Positions 6,948-48,924 are shown, numbered from the stretch's first letter. The stretch is DNA of 64,000 nucleotides from an uncultured Thermoleophilia bacterium (GCA_963829205.1 CAWHHT010000005.1:1032082-1096081), one strand, 5' to 3'. A program made the numbers and translations. Notes: a model not told the origin generated them from the sequence alone.

Positions 6948-7073
6948 GCTCCCTACTTCCCAGGCCGGAGGTGACAAGAACATCCGGGCCGATGCTACAC
7001 CTGCGGCGCCCACACCGGCCCCGTTCCGAGGGCACCCGCGCCCTGCGAAACGCCGGCACAGTATACGCGCAGC

Positions 7074-7643: not shown

Positions 7644-7671
7644 GGGCGGCCTTCTGCCGGCGTTGAAGGGG

Positions 7672-9084: not shown

Positions 9085-9088
9085 AGGC

Positions 9089-11106: not shown

Positions 11107-11786
11107 GGGAGATCCGCCTCCGACCCGGCCGTGTAGACCGCCATGCCCACCACGGCGTCGACGCCCATCTCGTCGAGGGTCTGGATCTCGGCCCGCGTCG
11201 CGATCCCTCCCGCCGCGAAGAGCCGGCGCGACGTCGCGGCGCGAAGCCGCCGCACCGCCGCGAGAGGGATGCCCTCCATCAGACCCTCCGTGTCGATGTT
11301 GGTGTACAGAAAGCCGCCGCACCAGGGCTCGAGCGCCTGCATCATGTCGAAGGGCGCGATGGACGTGCGCTGCTGCCAGCCGGCTACAGCGACGTGCCCC
11401 TGCCGGGAGTCGAGCGCGAACACGAGGCGCTCCCGTCCCGCCGCGGCGGCCAGGCGCGCGGCGAAGTCGCGGTCGACGCCGTCCTCGCGCACGAGAGCGG
11501 ACCCCACGATCACCGCCTGAGCGCCCGCGTCGAGCATCGCCAGAGCCGCGTCGAGCGAGCGGATGCCGCCGCCGACCTGGCAGGGCAGCTCGCCGGCCAG
11601 GCGTGCCACCAGCGCGCGGTTGTCGCCGCTGCCCATGGCGGCGTCGAGGTCGATGAGCTGGACCAGCGGGTAGGCGGCGAAACGCTCCACCCAGGGTTCG
11701 ACGTCGTCGAACTCGAGCGCGACGTCCTTGCCGTGGACGAGCTGCACGACTTTGCCACCCATCAGGTCGATGGCGGGGATCAGCAT
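11103..11786 (-). CDS. hisA: ProFAR isomerase HisA
   Basis: [16 protein letters not shown]...QVGGGIRS...GGIATRAEI are typical HisA (beta/alpha)8 phosphate-binding motifs. The start overlaps the hisF stop. Confidence 0.9.
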
Positions 11787-32220: not shown

Positions 32221-32666
32221 TGATGGTCACGAGTCCGATCGAGATCCTCATGGTCGAGGACAGCCCTGGCGACGCGCGGCTGACGATCGAGGCGCTCAAA
32301 GACGCCAAGGTCCTCAACCGCATCAGCGTCGTTGAGGACGGCGTCGACGCGATGGCGTTCCTGCGCCGGGAGGGCAAGCATGCCGATGCACCACGGCCCG
32401 ACCTCATCCTCCTCGACCTGAATCTGCCGAAGAAGGATGGCCGCGAGGTATTGGCTGAGGTCAAGGGCGACCCGGGGCTGGCGCAGATCCCGGTCGTCGT
32501 GCTGACGACATCGCAGGCCGAGCAGGACATCCTCCAGAGCTACCAGCTGCACGCCAACTGCTACATCACGAAGCCCGTCGACCTCGACCAGTTCATGACC
32601 GTGATCAAGTCGGTCGAGTCGTTCTGGTTGAGCGTCGTCAGGCTGCCCAAGGTCGATTTCGAGTAA
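32220..32666 (+). CDS. Single-domain response regulator (receiver only)
   Basis: [19 protein letters not shown]...[13 protein letters not shown]...ANCYITKP. The ATG shares one base with the kinase TGA (TGATGATG). Confidence 0.9.
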
Positions 32667-32669
32667 CGG

Positions 32670-34265
32670 GTGACCCTTCTGGCCCCAGAGTCCTCCGGCG
32701 ATGGCGCGCGAAGTGCGGGCGATGGCCAACGTCGCCGGCTCCGCGTCCTGCTGATCGAGGACAATCCCGGCGATGCCCGCCTCATTCGCGTGCAGCTGGC
32801 CTCGACAGGGGCGCGCATCCACCTCGAGTGGGTGGAGCGCCTCACCGAAGGCCTGGCAATGCTGGCTGCCGGGGGGCAGGCCTTTGACGCCGTCCTCCTC
32901 GACCTTTCCCTGCCGGACAGCCAGGGCCTCGCCACTTTCGAGCGCCTCCACGCGGCGGCGCCGCGCGTACCTACCATCGTGCTCACCGGCCTCGAGGACG
33001 AGGAGCTCGCCGCCACAGCCGTCCGCAACGGAGCTCAGGACTACCTGCCAAAGAGCCAGGTCGATGGTCCTTTGTTGGTGCGCGCCGTGCGCTACGCGAT
33101 CGAGCGCCAACGATCCGAGGACGCTTTGCGCCGAAGCGAAGAGAAGCTGCGCCTCGCGATGGAGGCGAGTGAGTCGGCCGTCTGGGACCTCGACGTTCGT
33201 GCACGGACAATGACTGCCAGCGCCGAGAGCCAGGCGATGCTCGGACGCGAGGCCGCCGAAGTGACCGAGAGCCTCGATGCGGCATGGGCTGAACACATCC
33301 ACCCGGACGACCGGGCGGACACGTTGCGGGCGCTTGAGGACGCACTCGTGGGACGGATGCCCTACTTCGAGCACGACCACCGCCTCCTCGCAGCAGACGG
33401 CAGCTGGCTCTGGGTCCACGGCAAAGGCAGCGTCGTTGAGCGCGACGCGCACGGAGCACCACTGCGCCTCCTCATGACGCGGACGAACATCACGGCGCGC
33501 AAGGCCGCCGAAGCGGCGGCGGCTGAGAACGCGGACCGCTTCGAGGAGCAGCGCCGCATCGCCACGGCACTTCAGGAGAATTTCGTCCGTGCCCTGCCTG
33601 AGGTACGTGGTCTTGAGTTCGGCCGGGTCTTGCGAGCCGCCTACCAGGCCGAGCTCGTCGGGGGCGACTTCAGTGACGTCTTCTTCGTCGACGATGCGCA
33701 CGTCGCCGTCCTCATCGGCGACGTGGCTGGAAAAGGCATCCGCGCCGCGGGGCACGCCGAGACGGTGCGCGCCGCGGTGAGGGCCTTTGCCATGATCGAT
33801 GCTTCGCCGGCCTTCGTCCTTCGCAAGACAAACGAGATGCTTCTGCGCAATCGGCCCGCCTCCGGCGGGCTGGAGTTCGTGACTGCCTCCCTGGCTGTGA
33901 TCGATTTGCAGACGGGGCACGCCGCGTTCAGTAGCGCAGGACATCCCGCCGCGGTGCACGCGGGTCCCTTCTCATGTTCCCCCCTCGATATCGTCCAGGG
34001 CGTCGCGCTCGGCTTCCTGGCGTCGGACTATGTCGACGGACACACGATGCTGGCGCTCGGCGACTATCTCGTCTTCTATACGGACGGGGTGACGGAGGCG
34101 CGCCGTGACGGCGAGCTCTTCGAAGAGGAACGCCTCGTGGCCGCCATCTGCCGCCTGCGCCACGAGCCGCCGCAGGCACTAGTAGAGGGTGTCTTGGATG
34201 CGGCGGCTACCTTTGCCGGCGAGCTGCGAGACGACCTGCTGGTGCTCGCCGTGCGCTTCGGCTAG
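32670..34265 (+). CDS. Response regulator receiver - PAS - PP2C (SpoIIE/RsbU-type) phosphatase
   Basis: REC (VLLIEDNPGDA...LLDLSLPDSQG...DYLPK), a PAS module, and PP2C motifs GGDFSDVF, IGDVAGKG and FYTDGVTEAR. Confidence 0.9.
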   Translation: MTLLAPESSGDGARSAGDGQRRRLRVLLIEDNPGDARLIRVQLASTGARIHLEWVERLTEGLAMLAAGGQAFDAVLLDLSLPDSQGLATFERLHAAAPRVPTIVLTGLEDEELAATAVRNGAQDYLPKSQVDGPLLVRAVRYAIERQRSEDALRRSEEKLRLAMEASESAVWDLDVRARTMTASAESQAMLGREAAEVTESLDAAWAEHIHPDDRADTLRALEDALVGRMPYFEHDHRLLAADGSWLWVHGKGSVVERDAHGAPLRLLMTRTNITARKAAEAAAAENADRFEEQRRIATALQENFVRALPEVRGLEFGRVLRAAYQAELVGGDFSDVFFVDDAHVAVLIGDVAGKGIRAAGHAETVRAAVRAFAMIDASPAFVLRKTNEMLLRNRPASGGLEFVTASLAVIDLQTGHAAFSSAGHPAAVHAGPFSCSPLDIVQGVALGFLASDYVDGHTMLALGDYLVFYTDGVTEARRDGELFEEERLVAAICRLRHEPPQALVEGVLDAAATFAGELRDDLLVLAVRFG

Positions 34266-36483: not shown

Positions 36484-36936
36484 CGCTCTGCATCGGTCCC
36501 CCTCTCGTCGACCCCGACGCCCGCCCTTGCTGCCACTGGCGCCGCTGACGGAGCAACTGCTCTCGTTGTTCGATACCCGAATGGCTCCGGCAACGCACTC
36601 GCTCGCCTCGTCCACGCCGCCCACCCAACCCAGATGAATGCACTCTCGCGCCCAAGCTCCGGCGCCGATCCCGGCGATGCAGGAGGAGGCTGCGGAGCTG
36701 ATCGCGGGGCTGGTGTTCGCGGGCAGCGATCACGCCAAGGAGCAGCCGGACCGGCATCGAAGAGCTACTCCGAGACTCGCGAAATCTCGTCGGCGCGGCA
36801 GGGGACGTGATCCTGGCTGCCGCGGAACCATCGCTTGCGCTCGCCGTCGACTCAAGCAGAGGCACCGCGCCTGCCGATGCTTGGAGTTGCGGGGCTCGAC
36901 GCACGGTCTCACGATTCGAAGAGGAGAGGCAGCACG

Positions 36937-38361
36937 ATGGTCGGAACAATCTCACGATGGTGCGGCGTGGTGGTCGTCTGCTTGTCTGGGCTGGCCGTGC
37001 TGGCGATGGCACCCTGCACAGCGTCCGCCTCGAAAGCCCAGTACGAGAAGGCCTACCGCATCGGGCTCGAGGCATACACCTACGGTCTGCCGTTGCTCGA
37101 GACCAACAAGACCTTCCTCACGATGACCAGCATCAACGTCTCGAAGAAGGGCTTCGGTCCCGTCAACCAGTTCAACAGCGTGCGCAAGCTGAACAACCCG
37201 GCAAGCAAGGCCGTCGTCGCACCGGGTTCGAGCACGCTCTCCTCCGTCGCTTGGCTCGACCTCACGAGGGAGCCGCAGGTCCTCCACGTGCCGCGGGTGA
37301 AGAATCACTTCTTCGTCCTCGGCCTGATCGACCCGTACACCACGGACATCGCGAACCTCGGCAGCGTCCATGACACCAAGCCTGGGTACTACGTCATCTG
37401 CGGGCCCGGCCAGCACTCACTGTCGATCCCGGCAGGGACGCAGCGGATCGACGTCAACTACACGCGCATCTGGATCATCGGGTCGACCCAGCTGAAGGGC
37501 AAGAAGGACCTCGCCAACGTGCACCGCATACAGGACCGCTACACGCTGACGCCCCTCAGCAAGTACGGCTCCGGCTACAAGCCGAGGCGCCCGGCGCATC
37601 CGCACAGCAAGGTCAGGGAGTACTCGCTGCCCGGGAAGCTGCGCTTCTTCGACGTGCTCGGGCGGCAGCTCCAGAAGTTCCCGCCGCCGGCCGCCGATCG
37701 AGCCGTCCTTCGCAGGTTCGCCGAGGTCGGGATCGGCCCCGGGAAGCGGCCCTCGCGGAGCCATCACCTGAACGCCGACACGCTTCGCGGCCTGCGGGCC
37801 GCCGTCGAGGCGGGACCGGCGCAGATCGTGAGTGACACCGAGTCCCTGTTCCTCGCCGGCTTCGACAAGCACGACGGCTACCTGCTCGGCGGCTTCGGCC
37901 GCTACGGTACCAACTACAAGCTGCGCGCGGTCGTCTCCCAGATCGGCCTCGGGGCCCTCACGTCGCAGCAGACCATCTTCGCGATAAGCTCGACCGACCA
38001 CAGCGGGCAGCCGCTGAGCGGATCGACCGACTACGTCATGCACATGGCCAAGGCGCCGCCGGTGAACGAGGGTTGGTCACTCACCGTCTACGACCTGCAG
38101 GGGTTCCTGATCCCCAATCCCATCGACCGCTATAAGTTCAACAACAAGTCCCGACTCACGCGCAATGCCGACGGCTCGGTGGACATCTACCTCCAGGCCG
38201 AGCAGCCGACGGACCCGGCGCAGGCCAGGAACTGGCTGCCGACCGCCGGCGGCCAGGGGTTCGAGGTGATCTGGCGACTCCTCGCGCCGAAGCCTGGCAA
38301 GATCAAGGGCATCCTCGATGGCACAGGCTGGGAGCCGCCGGCGATCACACCGGCGCCGTGA
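36937..38361 (+). CDS. DUF1254/DUF1214 domain-containing secreted protein
   Basis: ATG at 36937 with GAGGAGAGG upstream, followed by a signal-like N-terminus. It carries YTYGLPLLETNKTF...PVNQF...VAPGSSTLSSVAWLDL...FFVLGLIDPYT and C-terminal DUF1214-like WSLTVYD...NWLP. Confidence 0.8.
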   Translation: MVGTISRWCGVVVVCLSGLAVLAMAPCTASASKAQYEKAYRIGLEAYTYGLPLLETNKTFLTMTSINVSKKGFGPVNQFNSVRKLNNPASKAVVAPGSSTLSSVAWLDLTREPQVLHVPRVKNHFFVLGLIDPYTTDIANLGSVHDTKPGYYVICGPGQHSLSIPAGTQRIDVNYTRIWIIGSTQLKGKKDLANVHRIQDRYTLTPLSKYGSGYKPRRPAHPHSKVREYSLPGKLRFFDVLGRQLQKFPPPAADRAVLRRFAEVGIGPGKRPSRSHHLNADTLRGLRAAVEAGPAQIVSDTESLFLAGFDKHDGYLLGGFGRYGTNYKLRAVVSQIGLGALTSQQTIFAISSTDHSGQPLSGSTDYVMHMAKAPPVNEGWSLTVYDLQGFLIPNPIDRYKFNNKSRLTRNADGSVDIYLQAEQPTDPAQARNWLPTAGGQGFEVIWRLLAPKPGKIKGILDGTGWEPPAITPAP

Positions 38362-38455
38362 CCTCTCAGCCGCGAAGCCACTCGCACGCCATCCCGACGA
38401 TGCAGGAAGAAGCGGCGGCGCTACCACCGAGAGAGACCAACCCTGCAGGTCACGG

Positions 38456-40123
38456 CTACCCCTCGCGAATCGCCAGCACTTCCGCAGCGTGGACACTGAG
38501 ATACGCCTCCGCCTGGCCGCCGCTGCTGCCAAGGTCGAGATCAGTGAGTGCCTCGATCCGCGCCAATCGCTTCCGCAGCGTGTTGCGATGCACGTAGAGC
38601 ACGGCCGCGGTCTCGCTCACCGAGTAGGCCGCTGCGAGATACGACTCGAGGGTGAGCAGAAGCTCGGTGCCGTGTTCGGCGTCGGCGACGGCCAGCACTC
38701 CGGCGACGCCGTCGCGCAGTTCGCGGAGGACCTCGTCGGGCAAGCTGTCCAGGGCTTTGTAGCGCACACCCAGTTCGTCGAAGAGCATGACCGGTGTCCC
38801 GCCTTCGGCCAAGCCATGCCGCAAGGCGAGACGGGCCTGGCCTACGGCCCTCGGCAGCCCATCGAGTCCGCTGCACGATGCCGAGACTCCGGCGACGACT
38901 CGGACTCCGCGCAGCCTGGCCTGGACGGCGGTGAGCGCCTCGACAAGAAACCCACGCGCCGCGTCCGCATCATCGCCACCCTCCAGCGGACTCAGGACCA
39001 GCACTTCGCCATGCCCGCTCCTTGAGACGAACGGCACCTCGCTCTCTTCCAGGACGTGGTCGACCGTCGAGAGGAACGCGTCCGTCACCGTCTCGGCAAG
39101 GCCGGGATCAACAGCCGCCCCCCCTTCGAGGGTCCCAGGTTCGGTCGGCAGTGCGGTCAGAGCAAGCATGCGCCAAGGCTCGCGCGGCTCGATGCCGTGG
39201 TAGAGGAGGCGTTCGGCGAGCTCCGCTGGAGTGCCGCGGCTGTGCAGGAGCATGTCCAGCAACCCAGCCCTCGTGCGCCTGCGCACCATGCCGGCATTCT
39301 GGCTCGTCACGAGCTCCACTTCGAGCAGACGCTGAGCGAAGCTGAGTGCAGCGTCTGCGAACTCCGAGATGAGGCTGTCCTCCGGGTAGATCGCCATCAG
39401 CACCTGCTCGGTGCGACCGTGAATGCGGATCTCGCGAAAGGCGATCGGCCGGCCGCGGACGTCGACGATCACCGATCGCGGCACACCGGCACGAAGCACT
39501 CTCTGATACTCGGCCCATGCCTCCTTGATCAGCATCTGGCCAGCGGGTCCTGTCGGAGTCGCGCCTCCTGCGAGGCCGCCGCTGCCATCCAGCAGCAGCA
39601 TGTCGGCCTCGACCAGCTGACCCAGCCTCGTGACCAGTCCGGACGGCGTTTGCTCGGCCAGTAGGGTCTCCAGGAGGTGCTTCTGCAGGGCCACGCTGCG
39701 CCGCAAGCGGTGCATGTCGCGAGAGGCGAGAGCATTGAACACGTAGCTCGTGATCTGACGGAACGGCGTGCCTTCCGGGACTCTGAGGAGCGGCAGGCCA
39801 CATTCGTCGGCAGCGTCCAGCATGACCGCAGGGATCTCGCGGACGTGGGGCATGATGGCCACGCCGATGCCCACCATCCGGTGCTCCCTGAGGAGACGTA
39901 CGAGGCGCGCCCCGCTCTGCGCATCACCCTCAAGACGCGGCCCGGTCGTGAGAAGGAGGCTGCCCTGCACCATCCACGGCGTCGGATCATCGAGGTCGCC
40001 GATGTAGACGGCCTCGATGATCTGGTCGACGCCGGAGCGTCCCGCGACCACCTCGAGCTGCAGGTCGCTGTTCTCGACCAGCTCGCGGATGGTGAGCGCG
40101 TCCCCGACTGACTGTTCGGTCAC
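38456..40123 (-). CDS. PucR family transcriptional regulator
   Basis: N-terminal PucR-type sensor domain (LTIRELVENSDLQLEVVAG...) and C-terminal HTH (AAVLYVHRNTLRKRLARIEALT). A GTG at 40123 has GAGGGA 7 nt upstream. An alternative ATG is at 40162. Confidence 0.85.
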   Translation of the reverse strand: MTEQSVGDALTIRELVENSDLQLEVVAGRSGVDQIIEAVYIGDLDDPTPWMVQGSLLLTTGPRLEGDAQSGARLVRLLREHRMVGIGVAIMPHVREIPAVMLDAADECGLPLLRVPEGTPFRQITSYVFNALASRDMHRLRRSVALQKHLLETLLAEQTPSGLVTRLGQLVEADMLLLDGSGGLAGGATPTGPAGQMLIKEAWAEYQRVLRAGVPRSVIVDVRGRPIAFREIRIHGRTEQVLMAIYPEDSLISEFADAALSFAQRLLEVELVTSQNAGMVRRRTRAGLLDMLLHSRGTPAELAERLLYHGIEPREPWRMLALTALPTEPGTLEGGAAVDPGLAETVTDAFLSTVDHVLEESEVPFVSRSGHGEVLVLSPLEGGDDADAARGFLVEALTAVQARLRGVRVVAGVSASCSGLDGLPRAVGQARLALRHGLAEGGTPVMLFDELGVRYKALDSLPDEVLRELRDGVAGVLAVADAEHGTELLLTLESYLAAAYSVSETAAVLYVHRNTLRKRLARIEALTDLDLGSSGGQAEAYLSVHAAEVLAIREG

Positions 40124-40254
40124 CTGGCGTTCCCTCGCGGTGTGCGTCCGCCTACCGCCCATGCTAGCAGCATATGGCCGGCGCGGCGCTCCCGGGGGTC
40201 GAGAAGCGCCGCGCCGGCACGCTCCCGGCACGCATTCGAGGTCGCGACTACTGT

Positions 40255-41736
40255 CTAGGCGGATTCCGACTCGAGGTCGATCGATTGCAGCATGCGCTCG
40301 CTCTCCGCGATGGCTCCCCGCTCAGCTGCGACATCAAGATTGCGGGTCAGGAGCCAGTAGGCGATCCCCGTCGTCGCCGCGCCGACGATCCAGGCGATGT
40401 CGACGCTGTTGATGTGAGTGGCCAAGGGGCCGGTGAAGTAGCTCTTCAGCGTGACCAGATTGAGCAGCACCATGAACGGGATCTCGCAGGCGAACCCGAT
40501 GCCGTAGGCGATGAGGCCGCGAGGCGACCATACTCCGTAGATGCCGTGCGGCGCGAAGATGTCGATGATGGAGTAGTGCCCGCGGCGGACGAAGAAGAAG
40601 TCGATCAGGTTCACCGTGGTCCACGGAACGAGAAGGTACAGCATGAGCGTCAGAGAGGTGAACACGACGCCGACGGCGCTCGTGGAGATCAACTTGGCGA
40701 TCACAAACCAGATGACCATGAGAATCAGGATCGTGACGACGCGCGCTCGCCGCGTCGGGTTGACCTTTCGGAATGAGTCGACCCCAGCCAAAGACGTCAG
40801 CATGCCACCGTAGGCGTTCATGCCCATCGTCGCAGCCAGCGCCGCGGCCGAGATGAACGCAGCCGCAGTACCGAGGTGAGAGAACACGTGATTGCCGGCC
40901 GTCTGCAGGCCGACGAGGCCGTCGACCGCGCCCAGCCGGATCGCGAGCCAAGCTCCCAGCGCGATCAGCCAGACCGCCGGCGTGGTGGCTCCTGCGAAGA
41001 CCCAGGCGATGACGCTTCTCCGGCGGGTCTTCCGCGGCAGGTAACGAGAATAGTCCGACACGTAGCATGCATAGGTGATGTTGTACGCCGCCGCTGCTGA
41101 GAGCTGCGCCATGAACCCGGTCCAGTTGAAGCCGTACGCAGTGTGGGGGGCGACTCCGCCGGCATGTCCCGTGATCACTCCGACGGTGATGATCGCGATA
41201 AGCGGAAGGAGGATGTAGAGCAGCCAGCGGAAGATGCGGTGGAGCCAATCGTAGCCGTAGATCGCGAGCAGCGCCGCGCCTACGGTCGCGACGATCGCGA
41301 CCACATTTGCATTCCAGCCGAACGCTCCGTGCAGACCCTCCGCAAGGAGCACCTGGTCGGCGATGTTGAAGGCCAGGTAGGTGAAGAGGGCCGCAAACAG
41401 CGCCACCACCACGCCGCGAAACCCGAACTGCGCACGGGACTGGATCATCTGAGGGAGTCCGAAGACGGGGCCCTGGGCCGCATGGAACGCCATGAAGCAC
41501 GTGCCGATCAGGATGCCCAGGGTGCCGGCCACGATCGTCCACCAAAGCGACAGACCAAAGGCCGGACCCACGAAGCCGATCGGGATCGTGAAGTACTGGA
41601 AGTTGCCGAGGAACCACAGCGGTCCCTGGTGCCACACCTTTCCGTGACGCTCGGTGTCGGGGATCCAGTCGATCGAGCGCACCTCGATGCCACGGACGAG
41701 GCCAACGTCATCGGCTGGTTTGGGCTCAGTCACCAT
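40255..41736 (-). CDS. NCS1 family permease (purine-cytosine / hydantoin / allantoin type)
   Basis: 493 aa with 12 hydrophobic spans. The N-terminal IDWIPDTERHG..W.....WF..N is typical of cytosine/purine permeases. Confidence 0.85.
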   Translation of the reverse strand: MVTEPKPADDVGLVRGIEVRSIDWIPDTERHGKVWHQGPLWFLGNFQYFTIPIGFVGPAFGLSLWWTIVAGTLGILIGTCFMAFHAAQGPVFGLPQMIQSRAQFGFRGVVVALFAALFTYLAFNIADQVLLAEGLHGAFGWNANVVAIVATVGAALLAIYGYDWLHRIFRWLLYILLPLIAIITVGVITGHAGGVAPHTAYGFNWTGFMAQLSAAAAYNITYACYVSDYSRYLPRKTRRRSVIAWVFAGATTPAVWLIALGAWLAIRLGAVDGLVGLQTAGNHVFSHLGTAAAFISAAALAATMGMNAYGGMLTSLAGVDSFRKVNPTRRARVVTILILMVIWFVIAKLISTSAVGVVFTSLTLMLYLLVPWTTVNLIDFFFVRRGHYSIIDIFAPHGIYGVWSPRGLIAYGIGFACEIPFMVLLNLVTLKSYFTGPLATHINSVDIAWIVGAATTGIAYWLLTRNLDVAAERGAIAESERMLQSIDLESESA

Positions 41737-41786
41737 CTCAGACTCCTATCGCTCGCCATGGAGGATCGCGCGTACAGGAACACCTT

Positions 41787-42659
41787 CTATGTCCTTTCCG
41801 GAGAGTGCGGTGCACTGACCGGTGCCGTCGCAGCGACGGCACCGTAGAGCTCTGGCCGGCGATCGCGAAGCTGCGACCCGTAGCCGGTTCTCATCTCTCG
41901 TGTCTGCTCGAAGTCGACCCTCGCAACGAGCAGACCATCCTCTTCCTCGCCCAGCGCGGCGAGTGGTCTGCCGAGACAGTCGAGCGCGCAGGAATGGCCG
42001 GAGAAATGCGCGTCGCCATCGGCGCCGGCGCGATTGACGGCCACGATGGGAGTGACATTGTCGTACGCCCGAGCCCGCATGACGAGGTCCCAGTCAGGCA
42101 CGTGCGGGTCCTCCCAGGCGCCGATGACGACGAACAACTCGGCGCCGGCGAGCGCATGCGTGCGTGCTACCTCGGGGAAGGCGGCATCCCAGCAGATCAT
42201 GACGCCGAGGCGGCCCACAGACGAGTCAACGAGAGGCAGCTCATCGCCATTGACGAAGAACCTCCGCTCGGTGTCCAGGCAGTGGGTCTTGCGATAGGAG
42301 ATCAGCGGCGTGCCGTCCCGCTCGAAGACGGCAGCGGAGTCGTAGATGATATCCGTGGCCGCCGCCTCCGCATAGCCCGCAACCAGCACGACTTCCAGGT
42401 CCGCCGCCAGCTGTGAAAGACGACGCAGGCCAGGGCCGTCCGGCCAGAGCTGGGCCAAGTCGTGGAAGCGCTCGCCGACCGAGTAGCCCGTCACGCCGAG
42501 CTCGGGAATCACGAGCAAGCCGAGCTCGGAGTGAGCCTGTTTCAGAGAGCGCCCCAGCTGCTCGATCTTGGTCAAGTTGGCCTCGATGTCGCCGGTCTTC
42601 GAGACGAGCTGGATGCCGGCGGCAAGGAGCGCGGAGGGCGGCTGCGTCGAGCGGCTCAT
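41787..42659 (-). CDS. Carbon-nitrogen hydrolase (nitrilase superfamily)
   Basis: Glu-Lys-Cys triad contexts IPELGVTGY, YRKTHC and VMICWD. Confidence 0.85.
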   Translation of the reverse strand: MSRSTQPPSALLAAGIQLVSKTGDIEANLTKIEQLGRSLKQAHSELGLLVIPELGVTGYSVGERFHDLAQLWPDGPGLRRLSQLAADLEVVLVAGYAEAAATDIIYDSAAVFERDGTPLISYRKTHCLDTERRFFVNGDELPLVDSSVGRLGVMICWDAAFPEVARTHALAGAELFVVIGAWEDPHVPDWDLVMRARAYDNVTPIVAVNRAGADGDAHFSGHSCALDCLGRPLAALGEEEDGLLVARVDFEQTREMRTGYGSQLRDRRPELYGAVAATAPVSAPHSPERT

Positions 42660-42660
42660 G

Positions 42661-43509
42661 TCAGTCGTCCCGGAGCAGCGGGAAGGTCATGCAGTGTGGT
42701 CCACCGCCGCCCTTGAGGATCTCGGTGATCTCGGGTGCGATGACTTCGAGCCCGAAGGCCTTGAGCTTCGCGTTGACCTTGGCGTTGCCCGCGAACGTGA
42801 GCACGCGGTCGTCGCCCAGGCACTGGATGTTGCAGTGGTGCTTGAAGACGCCCTCACTGGGCACGTCGATGAGCTCGAAACGTCGCTTGCGCAGCATGCG
42901 CAGAAGGAAGTCGGGCATCTGCTCCGTCGCGCAGACCGCAAGGCCCGGCGCCACGATATTGAAGGCCATGTCGAGATGCAGGTTCTTGCTCGCGAGTTGC
43001 ACGCCGCGCACGTTGTAGCCCAAGGGTTCCAGGATCTCCGCGGCGCTGCGCAGACCTTCCCAGGTCGTGCGGGCGACGACGCCGTGGACGATCGTCGCCC
43101 CGTCGAGGAACCAGAAGTCCCCGCCCTCGAACGAGCCCCTCGTGACCTTGCCCACGACCGGCACCCCGAGTTCGCGCACCTTGCGCTCGTAGTGGATCTC
43201 CTCGCCTTGCCGGGCCGGTTCCTTGAAGCTGCCGATGAGGACCCCTTCGGCAAGGCATGCACCGAAGTCGCGGGCGTAGACCATATACGGCAGGCCCGGC
43301 GCCGGGTCTGCAAGCTCGACCTCGACTCCAGCCGAACGATAGGCCTGCACAAACTCGGCATGCTCGCGCGCGAACGCCTCGAGATCGGGCTCTTCACCGC
43401 TGGCGAGCACCCGGTTGGTGATCTCGTTGATGGGCTGAAAACGGAAATGCGTCGGAGGGCAGAGGAGAACCCTGCGCAGTCTGCCGGTGGAATTTGAGAC
43501 GAATGTCAT
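42661..43509 (-). CDS. Amidinotransferase-fold (DDAH / arginine deiminase-like) guanidino-group-modifying enzyme
   Basis: MVYARDF, FEGGDF, HLDMAFN and C-terminal GGGGPHCMT (nucleophile Cys). The ATG at 43509 has GGAAGGA upstream. The listed ORF begins at a TTG at 43539. Confidence 0.75.
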   Translation of the reverse strand: MTFVSNSTGRLRRVLLCPPTHFRFQPINEITNRVLASGEEPDLEAFAREHAEFVQAYRSAGVEVELADPAPGLPYMVYARDFGACLAEGVLIGSFKEPARQGEEIHYERKVRELGVPVVGKVTRGSFEGGDFWFLDGATIVHGVVARTTWEGLRSAAEILEPLGYNVRGVQLASKNLHLDMAFNIVAPGLAVCATEQMPDFLLRMLRKRRFELIDVPSEGVFKHHCNIQCLGDDRVLTFAGNAKVNAKLKAFGLEVIAPEITEILKGGGGPHCMTFPLLRDD

Positions 43510-43554
43510 GCGGTGGGTCCTTCCGTTCTCGTCAGTCAAGGCGATCGATGGGCG

Positions 43555-44709
43555 TCATTCGGCGTAGGCCTTGCGGAAGAGCTCCAGGTAGTCGTCGTAG
43601 CCGATGTCGCGCGCGTTGTCCGGTGAGCAGACATGTTCGTCGGAGAGGCGTGCCATGGTCTCGAGGTCACTCCGGTCGAGCTCCTGCAGATCACGCAGCT
43701 TGGGGATGCCGATCTGGGCCATCAGGGCTCGCGTCGCCTCCACCCCCGAGCGCCCCGCCTCGGCCTCGGTCATGTCCGCCGCTCCCGGGCTGAGAGCACG
43801 CGCGACCGCGGCGTGCTTCGCCGGATCGGCCTCGAGGTTGAACTCAAGGACGTAGGGGAGGAACACGGCGCAGGCGACTCCGTGCGGCGTGTCGTAGAGA
43901 CCGCCAAGGCTCTCCCCCATGCAGTGCACAGCGCCGACGTCGGCGTTGCCGAAGGCAAGGCCGGCGAGGAGGCTTGCGAGCAGCATGTCGGCGCGCGCTC
44001 CTGCGTTCGCTCCCTCCTTGACGGCGACCGTCAACGCCCCGGCGACCAAGCCGATGGCTCGAAGCGCCAAGGCGTCACTGATCGGATTGGCCGCCTTGCA
44101 CGTGTACGCCTCGATCGCATGCACCAGCGCGTCCATGCCCGTGGCGGCCGTCATGCCAGGTGGCAGGGTGAGTGTGAGATCGGGATCAAGGATCGCGACT
44201 TCGGGGGCGATCCGCTGATCGAGGAGCGTCATCTTGTAGTGATGCTCCTGGTCGGTGATGACAGCGACCCACGTGACTTCGCTCCCCGTCCCCGCTGTCG
44301 TGGGGACGGCTATCGTCGGAAGAGGAGCCCGCTCAAGCTGCCGCGGGTCTTCCCAGTCTTTGACCCGGCCGCCGTTGGTCACCAGCGCGGCGGCGGACTT
44401 GGCGGTGTCCAGTGCGCTCCCTCCGCCCAAGCCGATGATGGCTTGGGCGCCGAAGGCCACGGCAGCGGCGGCGGCTTCACAGCAATCTTCGTCGCGAGGG
44501 TTGGCAGACACGCCCGCGAAGACCGAGGACTTGAGACCAGCGCCTTTGAGGACTTCCACAGCCTTGTCTGCAAGTCCCGCGGCAACGATCCCGGGGTCAG
44601 TGACGATCAGGACGCTCTGGTCTGCGAAGGCCTTTGCCTCGCGGCCGAGATCGGCCAGTCTTCCCGCGCCAAAGATGATCTTGGTTCTCAGCTCATACGT
44701 GAAATCCAC
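43555..44709 (-). CDS. Iron-containing (group III) alcohol dehydrogenase
   Basis: 384 aa carrying GLGGGSALDTAK and the His-rich metal site region (MDALVHAIEAY..., GAVHCMGESL). Confidence 0.85.
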   Translation of the reverse strand: MDFTYELRTKIIFGAGRLADLGREAKAFADQSVLIVTDPGIVAAGLADKAVEVLKGAGLKSSVFAGVSANPRDEDCCEAAAAAVAFGAQAIIGLGGGSALDTAKSAAALVTNGGRVKDWEDPRQLERAPLPTIAVPTTAGTGSEVTWVAVITDQEHHYKMTLLDQRIAPEVAILDPDLTLTLPPGMTAATGMDALVHAIEAYTCKAANPISDALALRAIGLVAGALTVAVKEGANAGARADMLLASLLAGLAFGNADVGAVHCMGESLGGLYDTPHGVACAVFLPYVLEFNLEADPAKHAAVARALSPGAADMTEAEAGRSGVEATRALMAQIGIPKLRDLQELDRSDLETMARLSDEHVCSPDNARDIGYDDYLELFRKAYAE

Positions 44710-44787
44710 GGCACGACCCCCTCACAGATCTGTCATGTCCAGTCGAGTGCGTTGCCAGCGAAGACCGAGGCCCAGGATCACCTCGCC

Positions 44788-45723
44788 TCACAGCGTCGTG
44801 AGCACGAGCACCGCCTTTTCGGTGTGCATGCGGTTCTCGCCCTGGTCCCAGAAGACGCAGTACTTGCTCTCGATGACCTCGTCGACCATGTCCTCGCCGC
44901 GCGTGCCGGGAAGGCAGTGCATGTAGATCACGTCCGGCTTGGCCATCTCGATCACGCGCATGTTGACCTGGTAGGGCGCGAAGTCCTTGACGCGCTGTTC
45001 GGGGTCGGTCGTCGCCATCGAGTGCCAGGTGTTGCCGTAGATCACGTCGGCGCCGGAGGCGACCTCTTCGAGGTCCTTCGTGTAGACGATCTTCGAGCCG
45101 CTGAGCTCCGCCCACTTCTGCGCCGTGGCGAGCTGCTCGGCGTTGGGCTGGTAGGTCTCGTTCGGCTGCGCCGCGTAGAAGTCCATGCCCATCATCGCGG
45201 CGCCCATCATCAGCGAGTGGCAGACGTTCCAGATGTCGCCGAGGTAGCCGATCTTGAGGCCCTTGTAGGCGCCCTTCTTCTCCTTGATCGTCATCAGGTC
45301 GCAGAGGCCCTGGCAGGGGTGCGTCTCGTTGGTGAGCGCGTTGATCACCGGGTTGCGCATGTACTGCGCGAACTCCTCCACGACCTCCTGGCCGAAGGTG
45401 CGGATGAAGAGGCCGTCGCAGTAGCGGTCGATGATGCGCGCCGTGTCGCGGATCGGTTCGCCGCGGCTGGTCTGCATCTGGTCGGGGCTCATGTAGAAGG
45501 TCTGCGCCCCGAGCTGGGCGGCGCCGGCCTGGAAGCTCACGCGCGTGCGCGTGCTGAGCTTCTCGAAGATCATCGCGAAGGTCTTGCCGGCGAGCGGCGC
45601 GAAGGCTTCGCCCTGTGCGCGCTTGCGCTTGAGGTCGATCGCCGTATCGACGGCATAGCCGACCTCTTCGGGCGTGAAGTCGGCCAGCTTTAGGAAGTCC
45701 TTGCCTTGGAAGTGGTGAAGCAT
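44788..45723 (-). CDS. Ornithine-carbamoyltransferase-family enzyme with divergent second-substrate loop
   Basis: The carbamoyl-phosphate motifs STRTR, HPCQ and HCLP(G) are present. The position of the ornithine-binding DxxxSMG loop reads GNTWHSMA. GAGGAGG lies upstream of the ATG. Confidence 0.8.
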   Translation of the reverse strand: MLHHFQGKDFLKLADFTPEEVGYAVDTAIDLKRKRAQGEAFAPLAGKTFAMIFEKLSTRTRVSFQAGAAQLGAQTFYMSPDQMQTSRGEPIRDTARIIDRYCDGLFIRTFGQEVVEEFAQYMRNPVINALTNETHPCQGLCDLMTIKEKKGAYKGLKIGYLGDIWNVCHSLMMGAAMMGMDFYAAQPNETYQPNAEQLATAQKWAELSGSKIVYTKDLEEVASGADVIYGNTWHSMATTDPEQRVKDFAPYQVNMRVIEMAKPDVIYMHCLPGTRGEDMVDEVIESKYCVFWDQGENRMHTEKAVLVLTTL

Positions 45724-45946
45724 TCGCTCTGCGCCTCCTCTAGTCGCTGGGCATGCCGAGCCATCGGGCTTGCGTCAGGTGGGCACGGCGAGCCTAGGCA
45801 AGCAGCGACGTGCGGAGAAGTGGACGATCGGACACGATTTGCGGGGTTCGGCGGTGCCTCCGTACACGGGATCACCGACGCGAGGCAAGACCCACGTGTC
45901 GGCGAAGCAAGGCGAGTAGCAGAGAATCCGACGACCGAGATGGAAC

Positions 45947-45979
45947 GGACAAGGGACCGGCTCGGCCGGTCCCTTGTCC
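45947..45979 (-). terminator. Perfect 14-bp GC-rich hairpin downstream of the peptidase gene
   Basis: GGACAAGGGACCGG-CTCGG-CCGGTCCCTTGTCC, 46 nt past the stop at 46025. It has no clear U-tract, which is common in high-GC genomes. Confidence 0.5.
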
Positions 45980-46024
45980 GTCGTCTTGCGCCCGGTCCGC
46001 TTGCCGGGCGCCCACTGCGCGGAG

Positions 46025-48085
46025 CTAGTTCAGGGCCTCGATCTGCGGGGTCACAGTCTCGAGGGCGCCGCTCATGGCGTTCAGGCGCGAGTTCAGGTCG
46101 CTCAGCTTGGCATCACGCATGGTCTGCAAGTCGGTGATGGTCTGCGCGTTCCAAGTGCCCGCGCCAATGGCGTTGTACTGCGGCATCACGTCGAGGAGAG
46201 GCCACACGGGATGACCCTGGCCGCCCCAGGCGACCCGATAGTAGCTCGGGTCGAGGCGACTGAGCAGGTGAACGTAGACGGAGTGGCTCAAGGAGAGTCC
46301 GTTCGAGGTCCAATCGACGCTGACCAGCGCGCTCTGAGCGCCGTCGGTGTCGGCCGGGCTGGCCTGGAGGTCGGCAATCGCCGTATTGAGCGACTGCACG
46401 TCAAGCAGCACCTGCTCGTGCGGGTAGACGGTCGACTGGAACGGGGTCAGTCCCGTGAGCTCCTTGCTCACCGTCTTCTGGATCTTGAGGAGCGAGGCGT
46501 TCACCGCCGCAATGTGTGCGGCGGGAATCGTGCTCTTGCGTGCCTCGTAGGCTGCGCTCGCGCTCTTGAAGGCAGCCACGGCGTTGTCTATCCGGGTAAC
46601 CGCAGCGGCATTGGCGCCGGCCGCGAGCAGGTCGCTCGGCACGACGGTACCGGCAAGGCTGTCGGCACGCGATGCGAGGCCGTAGGGCAGCAGGCTGCGG
46701 TTGTTGAACTGGTCCTCGACTCGGAACACGAACTTGGCGATGTTCGCGAGGTTGTTCCAGTCGATCAGGTTGGCGCGCATGTACTGCGTGTGGTAGCTGC
46801 CGGTGCTGTCGACCTTGTTGTCGAAGGAGACGATCGGCACGCCCGCGGCCCCGAACGACCAGCTGTCCTTCCAGGTGCTCGAGGTTGAGCTGATCTTGTA
46901 GCCGTAGGGCAGGAAGTTGGAGGCGGCCGCCATGTCGCTCACGAGCGGCGTGAAGTCCGGGCTCGTGATCTTTAGCGGGTTGTCGCCGACGAAGTGGTCG
47001 CTGTTCAGCATCGCGCGGATCTTGCCGGGCCACGCAGGATGCGTGTGCGTGATCGACCACCAGGAGCCGATGCACCAGTCGTAGTAGGAGTTCACGTAGC
47101 CGAAGTCCTCGCCGGTCGTGGCCATGAAGCGCACCGTGTGCTGCGGGCGATAGTGGCTCTTGACCATTGCCTTGGCGATGACGAGGTTGTTGGTCACCCC
47201 GTCGGTGTCGTCGGTGGCGGTGTGGAAATATCCGTCATGGTGGGCCGAGAAGAGTACGAAGGTGCCGTCCTTGACCCTGCCGGGCAGATCGCCGAAGACG
47301 TTGTAGCCAAAGCCGCCGTTCTTGGCGAGGCGCACCTTCTCGATCAGCTTCATGTTGACCGTGGGGCCGACGCCGGCGGCGTTGAGCTGGCTGCGCAGCC
47401 AGGCGCCGTCCTGAGCTGAGACGTAGACCGAGGGCGCGTCATGCCAGTCGAACTCGCCGTCGAAGCTGCCGAGCGCATCGGGTGCGACCGTGTAGTAGGG
47501 CGCGGTGTTGGGCCCCCAGGTGAAGATGACGCCGGCTGCGCCGCGCGAAGTCGCCTCTGCCGCCTGGTAGTTGACCCACCAGGTGCCCAGGTCGGCGTCG
47601 AGGATCACGATCTTTCCCTTGACGCTGATGCCGGCAGCGGCGAGCTTGTCGAAGTCCTGCGCCGTGCCGTCGTGGCCCTCCACGAGTTGCGCCGTGAGGC
47701 CATGAGCCGACGTCGGCCGTGTGCCGGCGAACGTCGAGGCGATGAACTTGTTCAGTCCGACCTTCACGCTCGCCGACTTGAAGGTGAAGACGTCGAGTGG
47801 CACGCGCTCGAGGTGCACGTTCTTGAGGCCCATGGCGCGCATCTGCGAGGCGATGTAGCGGGCCCTGGCGTTGTCCGACCAGGTCCCGCCGATGAAGAAG
47901 CCGAGCTGGGGATTGGTGCCGGGCATGTCGGCGAGGTGGCTGTTGACCTTTTGCGGGTATCCGCGCGCAAACAGCTGGTCTATAGCGCGGTCGAACGTCG
48001 GCCGGGAGGCCTGAGCATACGAAGCTGCGGGAGCGACCAGAACGAGGCACGTCGCCGCGAGAATGGCGTAGAGAAGCTTCTTCAA
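46025..48085 (-). CDS. Secreted M28 family metallopeptidase with PA domain and long C-terminal extension
   Basis: Signal peptide MKKLLYAILAATCLVLVAPAASYA, a PA-domain segment (GKIVILDAD...AAGVIF), and M28 ligand contexts (FSAHHDGY, DDTDGV, TTGEDFG). It is visibly less GC-rich than its neighbours. Confidence 0.8.
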   Translation of the reverse strand: MKKLLYAILAATCLVLVAPAASYAQASRPTFDRAIDQLFARGYPQKVNSHLADMPGTNPQLGFFIGGTWSDNARARYIASQMRAMGLKNVHLERVPLDVFTFKSASVKVGLNKFIASTFAGTRPTSAHGLTAQLVEGHDGTAQDFDKLAAAGISVKGKIVILDADLGTWWVNYQAAEATSRGAAGVIFTWGPNTAPYYTVAPDALGSFDGEFDWHDAPSVYVSAQDGAWLRSQLNAAGVGPTVNMKLIEKVRLAKNGGFGYNVFGDLPGRVKDGTFVLFSAHHDGYFHTATDDTDGVTNNLVIAKAMVKSHYRPQHTVRFMATTGEDFGYVNSYYDWCIGSWWSITHTHPAWPGKIRAMLNSDHFVGDNPLKITSPDFTPLVSDMAAASNFLPYGYKISSTSSTWKDSWSFGAAGVPIVSFDNKVDSTGSYHTQYMRANLIDWNNLANIAKFVFRVEDQFNNRSLLPYGLASRADSLAGTVVPSDLLAAGANAAAVTRIDNAVAAFKSASAAYEARKSTIPAAHIAAVNASLLKIQKTVSKELTGLTPFQSTVYPHEQVLLDVQSLNTAIADLQASPADTDGAQSALVSVDWTSNGLSLSHSVYVHLLSRLDPSYYRVAWGGQGHPVWPLLDVMPQYNAIGAGTWNAQTITDLQTMRDAKLSDLNSRLNAMSGALETVTPQIEALN

Positions 48086-48275
48086 AGTGGTCCCCCAAGT
48101 GAGAGCAACTGGTCAGCCACGCGATAGAGTCATGGGCATCCCCCCGGACGATGTGCTCGGTGCGGCAAGTCGCATCGGCAGTGTCAAGCAGATAGACCAC
48201 CCTGTCAAGCACAACGAACATCCCTAGTCGATCCGACGCGTGCCGCGTAGCGTGGCGGCGCCGGCCGCTGGCCCA

Positions 48276-48319
48276 TTGACCTAGTCCTCGAACAGCCCAT
48301 AGGCTCGCATCCATGCGAG
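48276..48319 (+). promoter_or_regulatory. Candidate promoter (TTGACC-18 nt-TAGGCT) and 7-bp palindrome CTCGCATCCATGCGAG ahead of the XRE gene
   Basis: Read directly. The palindrome at 48304-48319 sits between the -10 element and the GAGGAG Shine-Dalgarno. Confidence 0.4.
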
Positions 48320-48336
48320 GATCAGAGGAGACGCCC

Positions 48337-48924
48337 ATGGCGGATGATGAGCTCCAGGACGTGGTCGCCAAGATCGGACAGCGCCTGCGCGAAGCACGCC
48401 TTGAGCGTCATCTCACATTGTCCCAGGTGGCGACCAGCGCGGGCGTCACGCGGGCGTTCGTAAGTCAGGTGGAACTCGGCCAGACATCGGCGTCGGTCTC
48501 GAACATGTACCGAATCTCCTCGGCGCTGGGGCTCGACCTGGGCACCTTGTTCGAGCCGCCCTTGTTCGAGCCGCTGCAGTCGAGACTCGTCCGCGTCGAT
48601 GAGCGCAAGGCCGCCTTCTACGGCGGCTCCGATGTCGCCTATCACCGCCTGACGCCGGAGGACGAACGCCGCGTCGAGCTCATCGAGACGCGCGCCAAGC
48701 CCGGCGGCTCCCCGGACGAGGAGCTGTATGCGAGAGAGGGCGACGTGGCCATCGCCCACGTGAAGCAGGGCAGTCTCGAGATCCGCTTCGAGAGCGAGAC
48801 CGTCGTGCTGGACGAGGGCGACACGCTGACCTACGACCCCACCGTGTCGCACACCTGGCGTAACCCTTCACGGCGCGACGACCTGATCGTACTCTTCGTG
48901 CACCTGCCGGGCGGCATGTTCTAG
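48337..48924 (+). CDS. XRE-family HTH regulator with C-terminal cupin domain
   Basis: HTH LTLSQVATSAGVTRAFVSQVELGQ and a cupin core GDVAIAHVKQGSLEIRFESETVVLDEGDTLTYDPTVSHTWRN. Confidence 0.85.
   Translation: MADDELQDVVAKIGQRLREARLERHLTLSQVATSAGVTRAFVSQVELGQTSASVSNMYRISSALGLDLGTLFEPPLFEPLQSRLVRVDERKAAFYGGSDVAYHRLTPEDERRVELIETRAKPGGSPDEELYAREGDVAIAHVKQGSLEIRFESETVVLDEGDTLTYDPTVSHTWRNPSRRDDLIVLFVHLPGGMF

Follow-up and report, generated by a model that had tools for sequence, protein, structure and literature searches.

A candidate operon for guanidino acid breakdown, with an atypical transcarbamylase and a pentein-fold enzyme, in an uncultured Thermoleophilia bacterium

The six-gene cluster and its boundaries

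The window analysed here is a 64,000-nt stretch of DNA, about 67% GC, from an uncultured soil actinobacterium of the Thermoleophilia type (GCA_963829205.1, CAWHHT010000005.1:1032082-1096081), and its subject is a cluster of six genes that encode, in order of transcription, a transcarbamylase (TC), an iron-dependent alcohol dehydrogenase (Fe-ADH), a pentein-fold cysteine hydrolase (a putative deiminase), a CN-hydrolase, an NCS1 permease and a PucR-family regulator. A preliminary description had placed six co-directional genes at 38456-45723; open reading frames (ORFs) with these limits are present on the minus strand, and Pfam assigns their families. The genes, and the two hairpins taken as the limits of the unit, are as follows:

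44788-45723, minus strand: TC (311 aa; Pfam OTCace_N and OTCace, far above the gathering score)
43555-44709, minus strand: Fe-ADH (384 aa; Pfam Fe-ADH and ADH_Fe_C, far above the gathering score)
42661-43539, likely 42661-43509, minus strand: pentein-fold cysteine hydrolase, the putative deiminase (ORF of 292 aa; Pfam DDAH_eukar/ADI, far above the gathering score)
41787-42659, minus strand: CN-hydrolase (290 aa; Pfam CN_hydrolase, far above the gathering score)
40255-41736, minus strand: NCS1 permease (493 aa; Pfam Transp_cyt_pur, far above the gathering score)
38456-40231, minus strand: PucR-family regulator (ORF of 591 aa; Pfam PucR, GGDEF_2 and HTH_30, far above the gathering scores)
45947-45979, minus strand: 14-bp perfect stem-loop (GGACAAGGGACCGG ... 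CCGGTCCCTTGTCC), 3' of the preceding M28-peptidase gene; upstream boundary of the unit
38413-38429, minus strand: terminator-like hairpin with a T-rich tail, 27 nt past the PucR stop; downstream boundary of the unit

The gaps between the genes, in transcription order, are 78, 15-45, 1, 50 and 23-108 nt, the ranges following from alternative start sites, and the 1-nt gap between the pentein gene and the CN-hydrolase gene, reported earlier, is confirmed. The most likely pentein start is the ATG at 43509, which has GGAAGGA 9 nt upstream and gives a protein of 282 aa (homologues have 282-285 aa); the PucR start probably lies inside the longer ORF, at 40162 or 40123; and a ribosome-binding site, GAGGAGG, stands 8 nt 5' of the TC ATG. 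A scan of the cluster found no intrinsic-terminator-like site between its genes, and since the gaps are short and hairpins bound the cluster on both sides (45947-45979 and 38429-38413), the six genes look like one operon.

Searches for control elements gave little. An Rfam scan of 38000-48400, including the 300-nt leader, at E<=1 returned spurious hairpin and miRNA-model hits at the stem-loop and no guanidine riboswitch; a sigma-70 promoter scan returned nothing, as expected for an actinobacterium of 67% GC; and no conserved promoter or operator was seen upstream of the TC, where the corresponding regions of sister metagenome-assembled genomes (MAGs) are unalignable coding sequence of a different gene. 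The public runs that contain the window sequence are soil, wetland and peat DNA metagenomes, with no RNA runs among them. An exact-protein lookup has no record of the TC, which is 94% identical to its counterpart in an uncultured Thermoleophilia MAG.

The transcarbamylase and the pentein-fold enzyme

The motifs singled out in the preliminary description are all found, namely STRTR, HPCQ, HCLP and GNTWHSMA in the TC, and GGGGPHCMT in the pentein enzyme. STRTR, HPCQ and HCLP are the carbamoyl-phosphate motifs; they are invariant in the clade described below, and the carbamoyl-phosphate site is intact. The TC is about 50% identical to the ornithine transcarbamylase (OTC) of Pyrococcus furiosus, whose YTDVWASMG aligns with YGNTWHSMA of the TC. 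In OTC, Asp231, Ser235 and Met236 contact ornithine directly, Asp231 holding the alpha-amino group, and DxxxSMG is the accepted signature; the transcarbamylases acting on diaminopropionate and diaminobutyrate are set apart by replacement of this Asp (PMC4581275).

A search of 5.8 billion proteins gave a series of TC homologues unbroken from 90% to 59% identity, nearly all carrying N-T-[WF]-H-S-M-[GA], GD[IV][WYF]NVCHS and HCLPG[YF]RGE[ED]. Among 1.84 billion representatives clustered at 50% identity, a score gap separates a few variant-loop sequences (301-345 bits) from the canonical OTCs, which run from 264 bits downwards; these canonical representatives (GDGNNV, TDVWxSMG) are at most 44% identical to the TC, and Asp occupies the loop position in 117 of the 132 representatives in the 50%-identity set. 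A column comparison of 111 clade members (52-100% identity; Thermoleophilia, Listeria, Serratia, Chloroflexi and Bathyarchaeia) with 96 canonical OTCs gave the following differences:

Position 231: Asn in the clade (111/111), Asp in canonical OTC (96/96)
Position 164: Ile or Val in the clade, Gly in canonical OTC
Position 165: Trp, Tyr or Phe in the clade, Asn in canonical OTC
Position 230: Gly or Ala in the clade, Thr in canonical OTC
Position 234: His in the clade, Val, Ala or Thr in canonical OTC
Position 273: Gly in the clade, Ala in canonical OTC
Position 274: Tyr or Phe in the clade, His in canonical OTC

The pocket of the window TC is thus N231, H234, I164/W165 and G273. The carboxylate-binding N166, S235 and M236 are unchanged in the clade, and Lys55 (in FEKLSTRTR) and N166 (the equivalent of Asn167) are conserved in it as in OTC. 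By sequence, the TC belongs to a coherent, distinct clade that lacks the Asp of DxxxSMG, and it is not a canonical OTC. The earlier suggestion that its altered second-substrate loop probably serves a substrate other than ornithine is supported, in that Asn replaces Asp without exception across this large clade and other pocket positions have changed with it.

The partner enzyme can be placed by its predicted structure. Its AlphaFold model (pLDDT 91, from a 19-sequence alignment) has as closest solved structures in Foldseek NnhA and the N-domains of ArgZ/AgrE (TM 0.83-0.85, 22-26% identity), followed by amidinotransferases, DDAH (TM 0.77-0.80) and arginine deiminase (ADI); on this model the pentein fold is certain. 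Identity to any solved relative is at most 26%, and there is no characterised close relative; the curated DDAH, ADI and ArgZ models give at best 88 bits against cut-offs of 300-1025, and NCBIfam (June 2026) holds no curated model for the enzyme. Databases give its homologues names that are unspecific or incorrect ('N-dimethylarginine dimethylaminohydrolase', 'arginine deiminase family protein', 'nitrate reductase'); the last of these, attached in NCBI to the close homologues P0185 and P0233, is an evident annotation error spreading through MAG records.

Alignment to the DDAH of P. aeruginosa (PaDDAH) and to ArgZ shows that the catalytic Cys283, His188 and Glu138 are retained (PaDDAH C249, H162 and E114), as is the guanidino-clamp Asp91 (PaDDAH D66), which lies within an ADI-like [Y/F]-[A/T]-R-D motif. 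The carboxylate binders Arg110 and Arg157 are also retained (Arg85 and Arg132 in PaDDAH, Arg98 and Arg145 in human DDAH1). Six residues before the clamp Asp, the window enzyme has Tyr85, where PaDDAH has Asp60, ArgZ an Asp and human DDAH1 Asp73, the residue that holds the alpha-amino group of the substrate (PMC10958460). Tyr stands at this position in every deiminase linked to a TC of the clade described above (clade 1), whether from Thermoleophilia, Listeria, Enterobacterales, Chloroflexi, Anaerolineae or Deltaproteobacteria. With Asn231 in the TC and Tyr85 in the deiminase, the two enzymes have, on these alignments, each lost the alpha-amino binder independently and kept the carboxylate binders.

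These residue patterns bear on two readings that would assign the enzymes to described routes. In one, the pentein enzyme is a DDAH or a small arginine deiminase that makes citrulline from methylarginines or arginine, and the TC is a catabolic OTC. The TC does pass TIGR00658, the curated OTC equivalog (360 bits; cut-off 280.85), and NF001986 (352 bits); JGI and RefSeq label homologues as OTC, DDAH or arginine deiminase family, and TIGR00658 likewise labels the clade as ornithine carbamoyltransferase; Pfam names the partner DDAH_eukar/ADI; and the ornithine site still has Lys55, Asn166 and Ser235-Met236. The TIGR00658 cut-off, however, does not discriminate and is uninformative for the identity of the TC, because a sister clade with the loop YNVAYTTMI and no SMG motif also passes it (345 bits); we therefore rejected the conclusion that the enzyme is merely an OTC. 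Further evidence against this reading is that Asp231 is replaced throughout the clade, that the deiminase lacks the alpha-amino-binding Asp and reaches 88 bits against DDAH cut-offs of at least 300, that none of the clusters contains ornithine- or arginine-handling genes, and that in Enterobacterales and Listeria, which have a standard argI/argF, the cluster is an extra module. We regard this reading as distinctly unlikely.

The other is an agmatine-type route, in which a guanidino amine would become an N-carbamoyl amine, to be cut by the CN-hydrolase (as by AguB) or by the TC (as by putrescine transcarbamylase, PTC) to a diamine, and thence to aminobutyraldehyde and 4-aminobutyrate (GABA). 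N-carbamoylputrescine amidase is indeed the best match of the CN-hydrolase, and an aminobutyraldehyde dehydrogenase in one relative (L001) and GABA transaminases in others lie downstream. The signatures of PTC are a Gln in FxQxSxRT, a (Y/W)(G/W)(V/L/I)x loop in place of SMG and, at the C-terminus, a helix of about 20 residues (PMC4581275). None of them is found in the TC, which has Lys55 instead of Gln, retains an SM(G/A) loop as SMA, ends at 311 aa with no extension and scores 264 against a TIGR04384 cut-off of 500; the deiminase, for its part, has no relationship to the agmatine deiminase family and still carries the two arginines that bind a carboxylate. Judged by sequence, both the OTC and the PTC readings fail on defining features, and an agmatine-type route is improbable.

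A second TC clade, with the loop YNV[AC]YTTMI, occurs in a sister module in Streptococcus suis (L075, 10001-15652), in L079, L080, L082, L084 and L086, and on the conjugative plasmid pLDW-8 of Enterococcus mundtii (L091, 1902-7840), where RefSeq calls the TC 'argF'. Its gene order is PucR, TC, YfcC-family carrier, pentein deiminase, D-2-hydroxyacid dehydrogenase and carbamate kinase (CK), and its deiminase is about 50-55% identical to the clade-1 partner, with Val, not Tyr, at the alpha-amino position. The guanidino substrate of the sister module is probably another one, perhaps with an alpha-hydroxy or alpha-keto group. In another Thermoleophilia MAG (L016, 16300-19345), a further pentein gene, 40% identical, adjoins two tandem transcarbamylases that score nearest N-acetylornithine carbamoyltransferase, just below the cut-off (286 and 255 against 288), which suggests that Thermoleophilia carry several deiminase/TC modules.

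Gene neighbourhoods in relatives and the accessory proteins

Another Thermoleophilia MAG (L026) repeats all six genes in identical order; L008 and L011 have permuted forms. Other relatives differ in composition: L001-L003 have a CN-hydrolase, two NCS1 genes, an XRE-cupin gene, TC, deiminase and an aldehyde dehydrogenase; Listeria kieliensis has TC, APC permease, deiminase, CK and PucR; Atlantibacter subterraneus, Serratia quinivorans and Scandinavium have TC, APC permease, deiminase and CK; and a Bacillota genome has CK, PucR, APC permease, TC and deiminase together. We counted 69 species-level clade-1 loci, many of them on short contigs, so that the counts are lower bounds: the deiminase is present in at least 20, CK in at least 12 and PucR in at least 8. 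Overall, TC and deiminase are linked in at least six phyla, in varied gene orders. The conserved core is TC, deiminase, permease and PucR, with CK added outside Thermoleophilia, and the Fe-ADH, the CN-hydrolase and the NCS1-type permease are lineage-specific accessories. Deiminase, TC, CK and permease are all present in relatives from Listeria, Enterobacterales, Bacillota and Deltaproteobacteria; the window cluster has the deiminase, TC and permease and lacks a CK. None of 5,426 complete E. coli genomes has the form of the cluster seen in Enterobacterales.

A GABA-transaminase-like gene is found in at least 23 of the 69 loci, and in 20 of these it lies within 2.6 kb. Four of the TC-adjacent aminotransferases, one each from a subsurface metagenome, an archaeon and MAGs of Pseudomonadota and Deltaproteobacteria, pass the GABA-transaminase equivalog TIGR00700 (550, 512, 528 and 554 against 506.65), and they are followed by an aldehyde:ferredoxin oxidoreductase (AFOR) or an aldehyde dehydrogenase. 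Examples are L088 (deiminase, further on TC, aminotransferase and AFOR, with PucR), L060 (TC, deiminase, aminotransferase, aldehyde dehydrogenase) and L025 (PucR, TC, CK, aminotransferase). In L001, a closely related Thermoleophilia MAG (TC 88% identical), the deiminase gene is followed by one whose product passes the aminobutyraldehyde dehydrogenase model (704 against 615), an enzyme type whose substrates are C4 omega-amino or guanidino aldehydes. From these neighbourhoods, the amine product would be handed to a GABA-type transaminase. A class III aminotransferase at 9901-11322 of the window was considered as the missing GabT and rejected, being ArgD-like (TIGR00707 370; GABA-aminotransferase model 239) and 30 kb away.

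Might the six genes nevertheless be chance neighbours, or belong to separate pathways? The exchange of Fe-ADH, CN-hydrolase and NCS1 for other genes in sister Thermoleophilia clusters would fit such a view. It is contradicted by the conserved order in L026, by a TC-deiminase linkage that spans phyla and gene orders, and by the 1-nt gap and the lack of internal terminators, so that we give it very little credence. The preliminary description had called for a comparison of neighbourhoods across genomes, and the arrangement proves to be conserved beyond chance; its broader proposal, a PucR-controlled guanidino or ureido catabolic route, likewise gains from the association of TC, deiminase, permease and PucR across phyla.

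The CN-hydrolase had been described as a Glu-Lys-Cys amidase of the nitrilase superfamily, in agreement with our alignment of E53, K124 and C157 to the catalytic residues of N-carbamoylputrescine amidase (5h8i). This is also its best curated match (TIGR03381, 146 bits, below the cut-off of 410), and the gene adjoins the deiminase gene in L008, L011 and L026 as well as in the window. We propose that it may act as an N-carbamoyl (ureido) amidohydrolase, a hydrolytic bypass of the TC; a guanidino-amide amidase is a possible alternative role. The Fe-ADH is a group III enzyme (PF00465, 176 bits; PF25137, 173 bits) that reaches no functional equivalog cut-off: its best curated matches are ErcA, GbsB and lactaldehyde reductase, and its relatives in the PDB are methanol, 1,3-propanediol and lactaldehyde enzymes. 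It adjoins the TC in L011 and L026 and has a 44% identical homologue in a Chloroflexia cluster (L057). Its role is the least certain in the cluster; speculatively, it could interconvert an aldehyde and an alcohol of three or four carbons, such as succinate semialdehyde and 4-hydroxybutyrate, or oxidise a guanidino alcohol.

The NCS1 permease is a divergent member of its family (PF02133, 114.8 against 23.5, residues 25-452; TIGR00800, 65 against a cut-off of 353), with no PDB relative by sequence, and presumably imports the substrate. In other lineages APC or YfcC permeases stand in for it; the hydantoin or allantoin connection that the preliminary description had drawn from the NCS1 permease finds no support in the relatives, which carry APC permeases. 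The regulator has an N-terminal PucR domain, a GGDEF-like middle and a C-terminal HTH_30, all above gathering scores, and a PucR gene accompanies the TC also in Listeria, Bacillota, Thermoleophilia and a subsurface metagenome; it is presumed to activate the operon.

Several loci depart from these patterns. In L008 (6465-9982) and L012 (6505-11643), CN-hydrolase, NCS1 and Fe-ADH are replaced, between deiminase and PucR, by Cyclase-family (PF04199) hydrolases, a 536-aa APC permease and a 332-aa protein that has no Pfam match and carries an HGHIHE-type motif. In Bathyarchaeia (L017, L020, L027, L028, L048, L062, L090 and others) an N-type TC (YANT[FW]HSMG) is widespread; a GABA-transaminase-like gene comes directly after it, and neither a deiminase nor a CK lies within 10 kb. 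A large cluster in a subsurface metagenome (L088, 3267-15440) holds an oligopeptide ABC transporter, a polysaccharide deacetylase, a glyoxalase, two Amidohydro_1 genes, TC, GABA aminotransferase, AFOR, PucR, a second pentein and a 336-aa N-extended pentein with Lys/Arg at the alpha-amino position; it may encode a route from a more complex guanidino compound.

A possible omega-guanidino acid pathway, and other genes of the window

Gene content, conserved synteny, residue patterns and folds are established here, and from them we put forward, with a confidence that falls a little short of even, that the operon would import and degrade, under PucR control, an omega-guanidino acid without a free alpha-amino group, most likely 4-guanidinobutyrate; the catalytic activities and the identity of the substrate are all inferred. 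The substrate would be taken up by the NCS1 permease, and the pentein cysteine hydrolase would deiminate its guanidino group, giving a ureido acid (4-ureidobutyrate) and NH3. The N-type TC would then phosphorolyse the ureido acid to an omega-amino acid (GABA) and carbamoyl phosphate, which an adjacent CK could turn into ATP in relatives and which here could go to biosynthesis or to an unlinked kinase. The CN-hydrolase may cleave the same ureido acid irreversibly to GABA, CO2 and NH3, standing to the TC as AguB stands to putrescine carbamoyltransferase in agmatine catabolism, and the Fe-ADH might act on a C4 aldehyde or alcohol of the same skeleton, the least certain step. In the TC pocket, the carboxylate carbon of GABA would take the place of ornithine C-alpha, where Asp231 would repel it and Asn or His could bind it. 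The alpha-amino binders are lost and the carboxylate binders kept; together with pocket-filling residues (Ile164, Trp165 and His234; Tyr85 in the deiminase) and C4-specific accessory enzymes, this makes the sequence 4-guanidinobutyrate to 4-ureidobutyrate to GABA the best single guess, though one we hold tentatively and at slightly less than even confidence.

Several points weigh against this proposal. The data do not fix the chain length (C3, C4 or C5) or the nature of the acidic group. The window cluster has neither CK nor GABA transaminase, so that the energy-yield logic and the link to GABA rest on relatives with 55-62% TC identity. Bathyarchaeial loci pair the TC with an aminotransferase and have no deiminase nearby, and some archaeal 'GABA-AT-like' enzymes use ornithine, so that the case for GABA is strongest in the bacterial clusters. 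The TC retains Lys55 and passes the OTC cut-off; NCS1 permeases are not known to transport guanidino acids; a TC and a CN-hydrolase acting on one intermediate would be redundant; and the Fe-ADH has no necessary place in the scheme.

A C3 version of the route, with 3-guanidinopropionate as substrate, or with N-carbamoyl-beta-alanine from reductive pyrimidine breakdown imported by NCS1 and converted to beta-alanine and carbamoyl phosphate, would make the TC a catabolic beta-alanine transcarbamylase and the CN-hydrolase a beta-ureidopropionase. Beta-ureidopropionase belongs to the CN-hydrolases, NCS1 carriers take uracil and hydantoins, and beta-alanine is commonly accepted by GABA transaminases. 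The bulky I164/W165 of the TC pocket would suit a small substrate, two Amidohydro_1 genes adjoin the TC in L088 and L053, and Fe-ADHs reduce 3-carbon aldehydes. A catabolic beta-alanine transcarbamylase was in fact predicted by Shi et al. 2015 (PMC4581275). Against this, the tightly linked partner is a guanidino-group hydrolase and not a dihydropyrimidinase, the amidohydrolases of L088 match hydantoinase models only faintly, the aldehyde dehydrogenase of L001 fits the C4 aminobutyraldehyde model, and dihydropyrimidine dehydrogenase is in none of the clusters examined; the C3 version is, on balance, unlikely.

Neither do we think it probable that the substrate is a different guanidino compound whose alpha-amino group is modified or missing (such as N-alpha-acetylarginine, argininic acid, 2-oxoarginine, 5-guanidinovalerate, taurocyamine or guanidinoacetate). 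The lost alpha-amino binders say only that a free alpha-NH3+ goes unrecognised, a hydroxyl, keto or amide group could form hydrogen bonds with Asn231 and Tyr85, the sister clade has a D-2-hydroxyacid dehydrogenase, and the Fe-ADH is moderately similar to sulfoacetaldehyde reductase. A simple omega-amino acid is nevertheless favoured by the GABA-transaminase and aminobutyraldehyde dehydrogenase matches with the aldehyde oxidoreductases, and aromatic and branched residues fill, rather than enlarge, the TC pocket.

Returning to the 4-guanidinobutyrate route, its closest known counterpart is the ADI pathway (ArcA, the catabolic OTC ArcB, the carbamate kinase ArcC and the antiporter ArcD), which follows the same logic: a guanidino group becomes a ureido group and NH3, and phosphorolysis by an OTC-family enzyme leads to ATP. 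Both have a dedicated permease, a pentein deiminase with a Cys/His/acid triad and an [F/Y]-x-R-D motif, and a TC on the OTC branch. Unlike ADI, the window deiminase is a minimal pentein of 282 aa that lacks the ADI helical insertion; the alpha-amino binders are lost in both window enzymes (Tyr85 and Asn231); the regulator is PucR and not of the ArgR/Crp type; the window has no CK; and the downstream genes of relatives indicate GABA, not ornithine. The agmatine deiminase pathway (AguA with PTC and CK, or with AguB) is the decarboxylated-arginine analogue of the ADI route and the only one known in which a ureido intermediate is cut by either a TC or a CN-hydrolase; the window has both kinds of enzyme, its CN-hydrolase being nearest AguB. 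Its deiminase, however, is not of the AguA (PAD_porph) family, its TC has no PTC signature, and the retained carboxylate binders point to an acid as substrate, not an amine. DDAH and ArgZ/AgrE, the closest relatives of the pentein enzyme in sequence and structure, share its catalytic residues and two carboxylate-binding arginines, and differ in their low identity to it (22-26%), in the alpha-amino Asp (here Tyr) and in curated scores far under the cut-offs; the obligate linkage to a TC favours a simple deiminase, since with a dihydrolase no TC would be needed, and with a DDAH an alkylamine would be released.

Two further systems resemble parts of the proposal. The guanidinobutyrase (GbuA) route has the same proposed substrate and product, 4-guanidinobutyrate and GABA, but GbuA is an Mn ureohydrolase of unrelated fold and chemistry that releases urea, whereas the proposed route would release NH3 and save the carbamoyl group as carbamoyl phosphate. 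The ureidoglycine transcarbamylase route of purine catabolism in Rubrobacter (Barba et al. 2013) also rests on a non-ornithine catabolic TC found by gene context, in an actinobacterial relative and with PucR and CK nearby; that TC differs in belonging to the aspartate transcarbamylase (ATCase) branch, in its allantoate-derived substrate and in the lack of a pentein enzyme.

The preliminary description had found no described pathway to match the cluster, and neither full-text literature searches nor the curated NCBIfam library gave one. Reviews of 2015 and 2018 list only ornithine, putrescine and ureidoglycine as substrates of established catabolic transcarbamylases, and ask which further ureido compounds microbes ferment (PMC4581275, PMC6022934); the oxamate enzyme of 2024 is of an unrelated family. 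In the full-text literature searched, which covers few subscription journals, we found no deiminase of guanidinobutyrate, guanidinopropionate or guanidinoacetate, no enzyme that cleaves ureidobutyrate, no carbamoyltransferase of GABA or beta-alanine, and no cluster combining DDAH, PucR and CK. Our best reading, from this comparison, is that the cluster would represent a third deiminase-transcarbamylase pathway, the absence of a prior description being not proven. Its full form would be a 'deiminase pathway' not described before and spread over Actinomycetota, Bacillota, Enterobacterales, Chloroflexota, Deltaproteobacteria and probably Bathyarchaeia, in which a new pentein deiminase and a GABA (omega-amino acid) transcarbamylase of the OTC branch make carbamoyl phosphate that feeds ATP synthesis; we hold it slightly more tentatively, with a confidence somewhat below even.

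Clade 1 is large, and cultured bacteria (Serratia quinivorans, Atlantibacter subterraneus, Listeria kieliensis) are among its carriers. If the proposal is true, the ATCase/OTCase family would gain a fourth catabolic member, and soil and possibly gut microbes would have a new means of conserving energy as they turn arginine-derived guanidino acids into GABA; annotation rules for the family would follow (Asp231 to Asn, His234 and an aromatic residue at 165), hundreds of 'argF' annotations would be corrected, and the question would be directly testable with two recombinant enzymes and commercial substrates. The proposal would also give a biosynthetic origin to an orphan metabolite, 4-ureidobutyrate, which is detected in stool and serum metabolomics and filed under pyrimidine metabolism with no known enzyme (PMC11543857). 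In published metabolomics 4-ureidobutyrate drops together with citrulline after antibiotics, which fits the microbial origin proposed here.

Upstream of the TC, at 46025-48924, the window encodes a secreted M28 peptidase with a PA domain (686 aa, with signal peptide) and, divergent from it, an XRE-HTH/cupin regulator. An XRE-cupin gene 35% identical to the latter lies directly upstream of the TC in L001, and this type of regulator may therefore be part of the same regulon as the TC cluster. On the other side, a DUF1254/DUF1214 protein of 508 aa (36835-38361) is convergent with the PucR gene. Two further regions, 5493-9258 and 30289-34265, are unrelated to the cluster: they encode a B12-binding radical SAM protein, two histidine kinases (one PdtaS-like with GAF, the other with PAS) and a response regulator whose long C-terminal region contains PAS.

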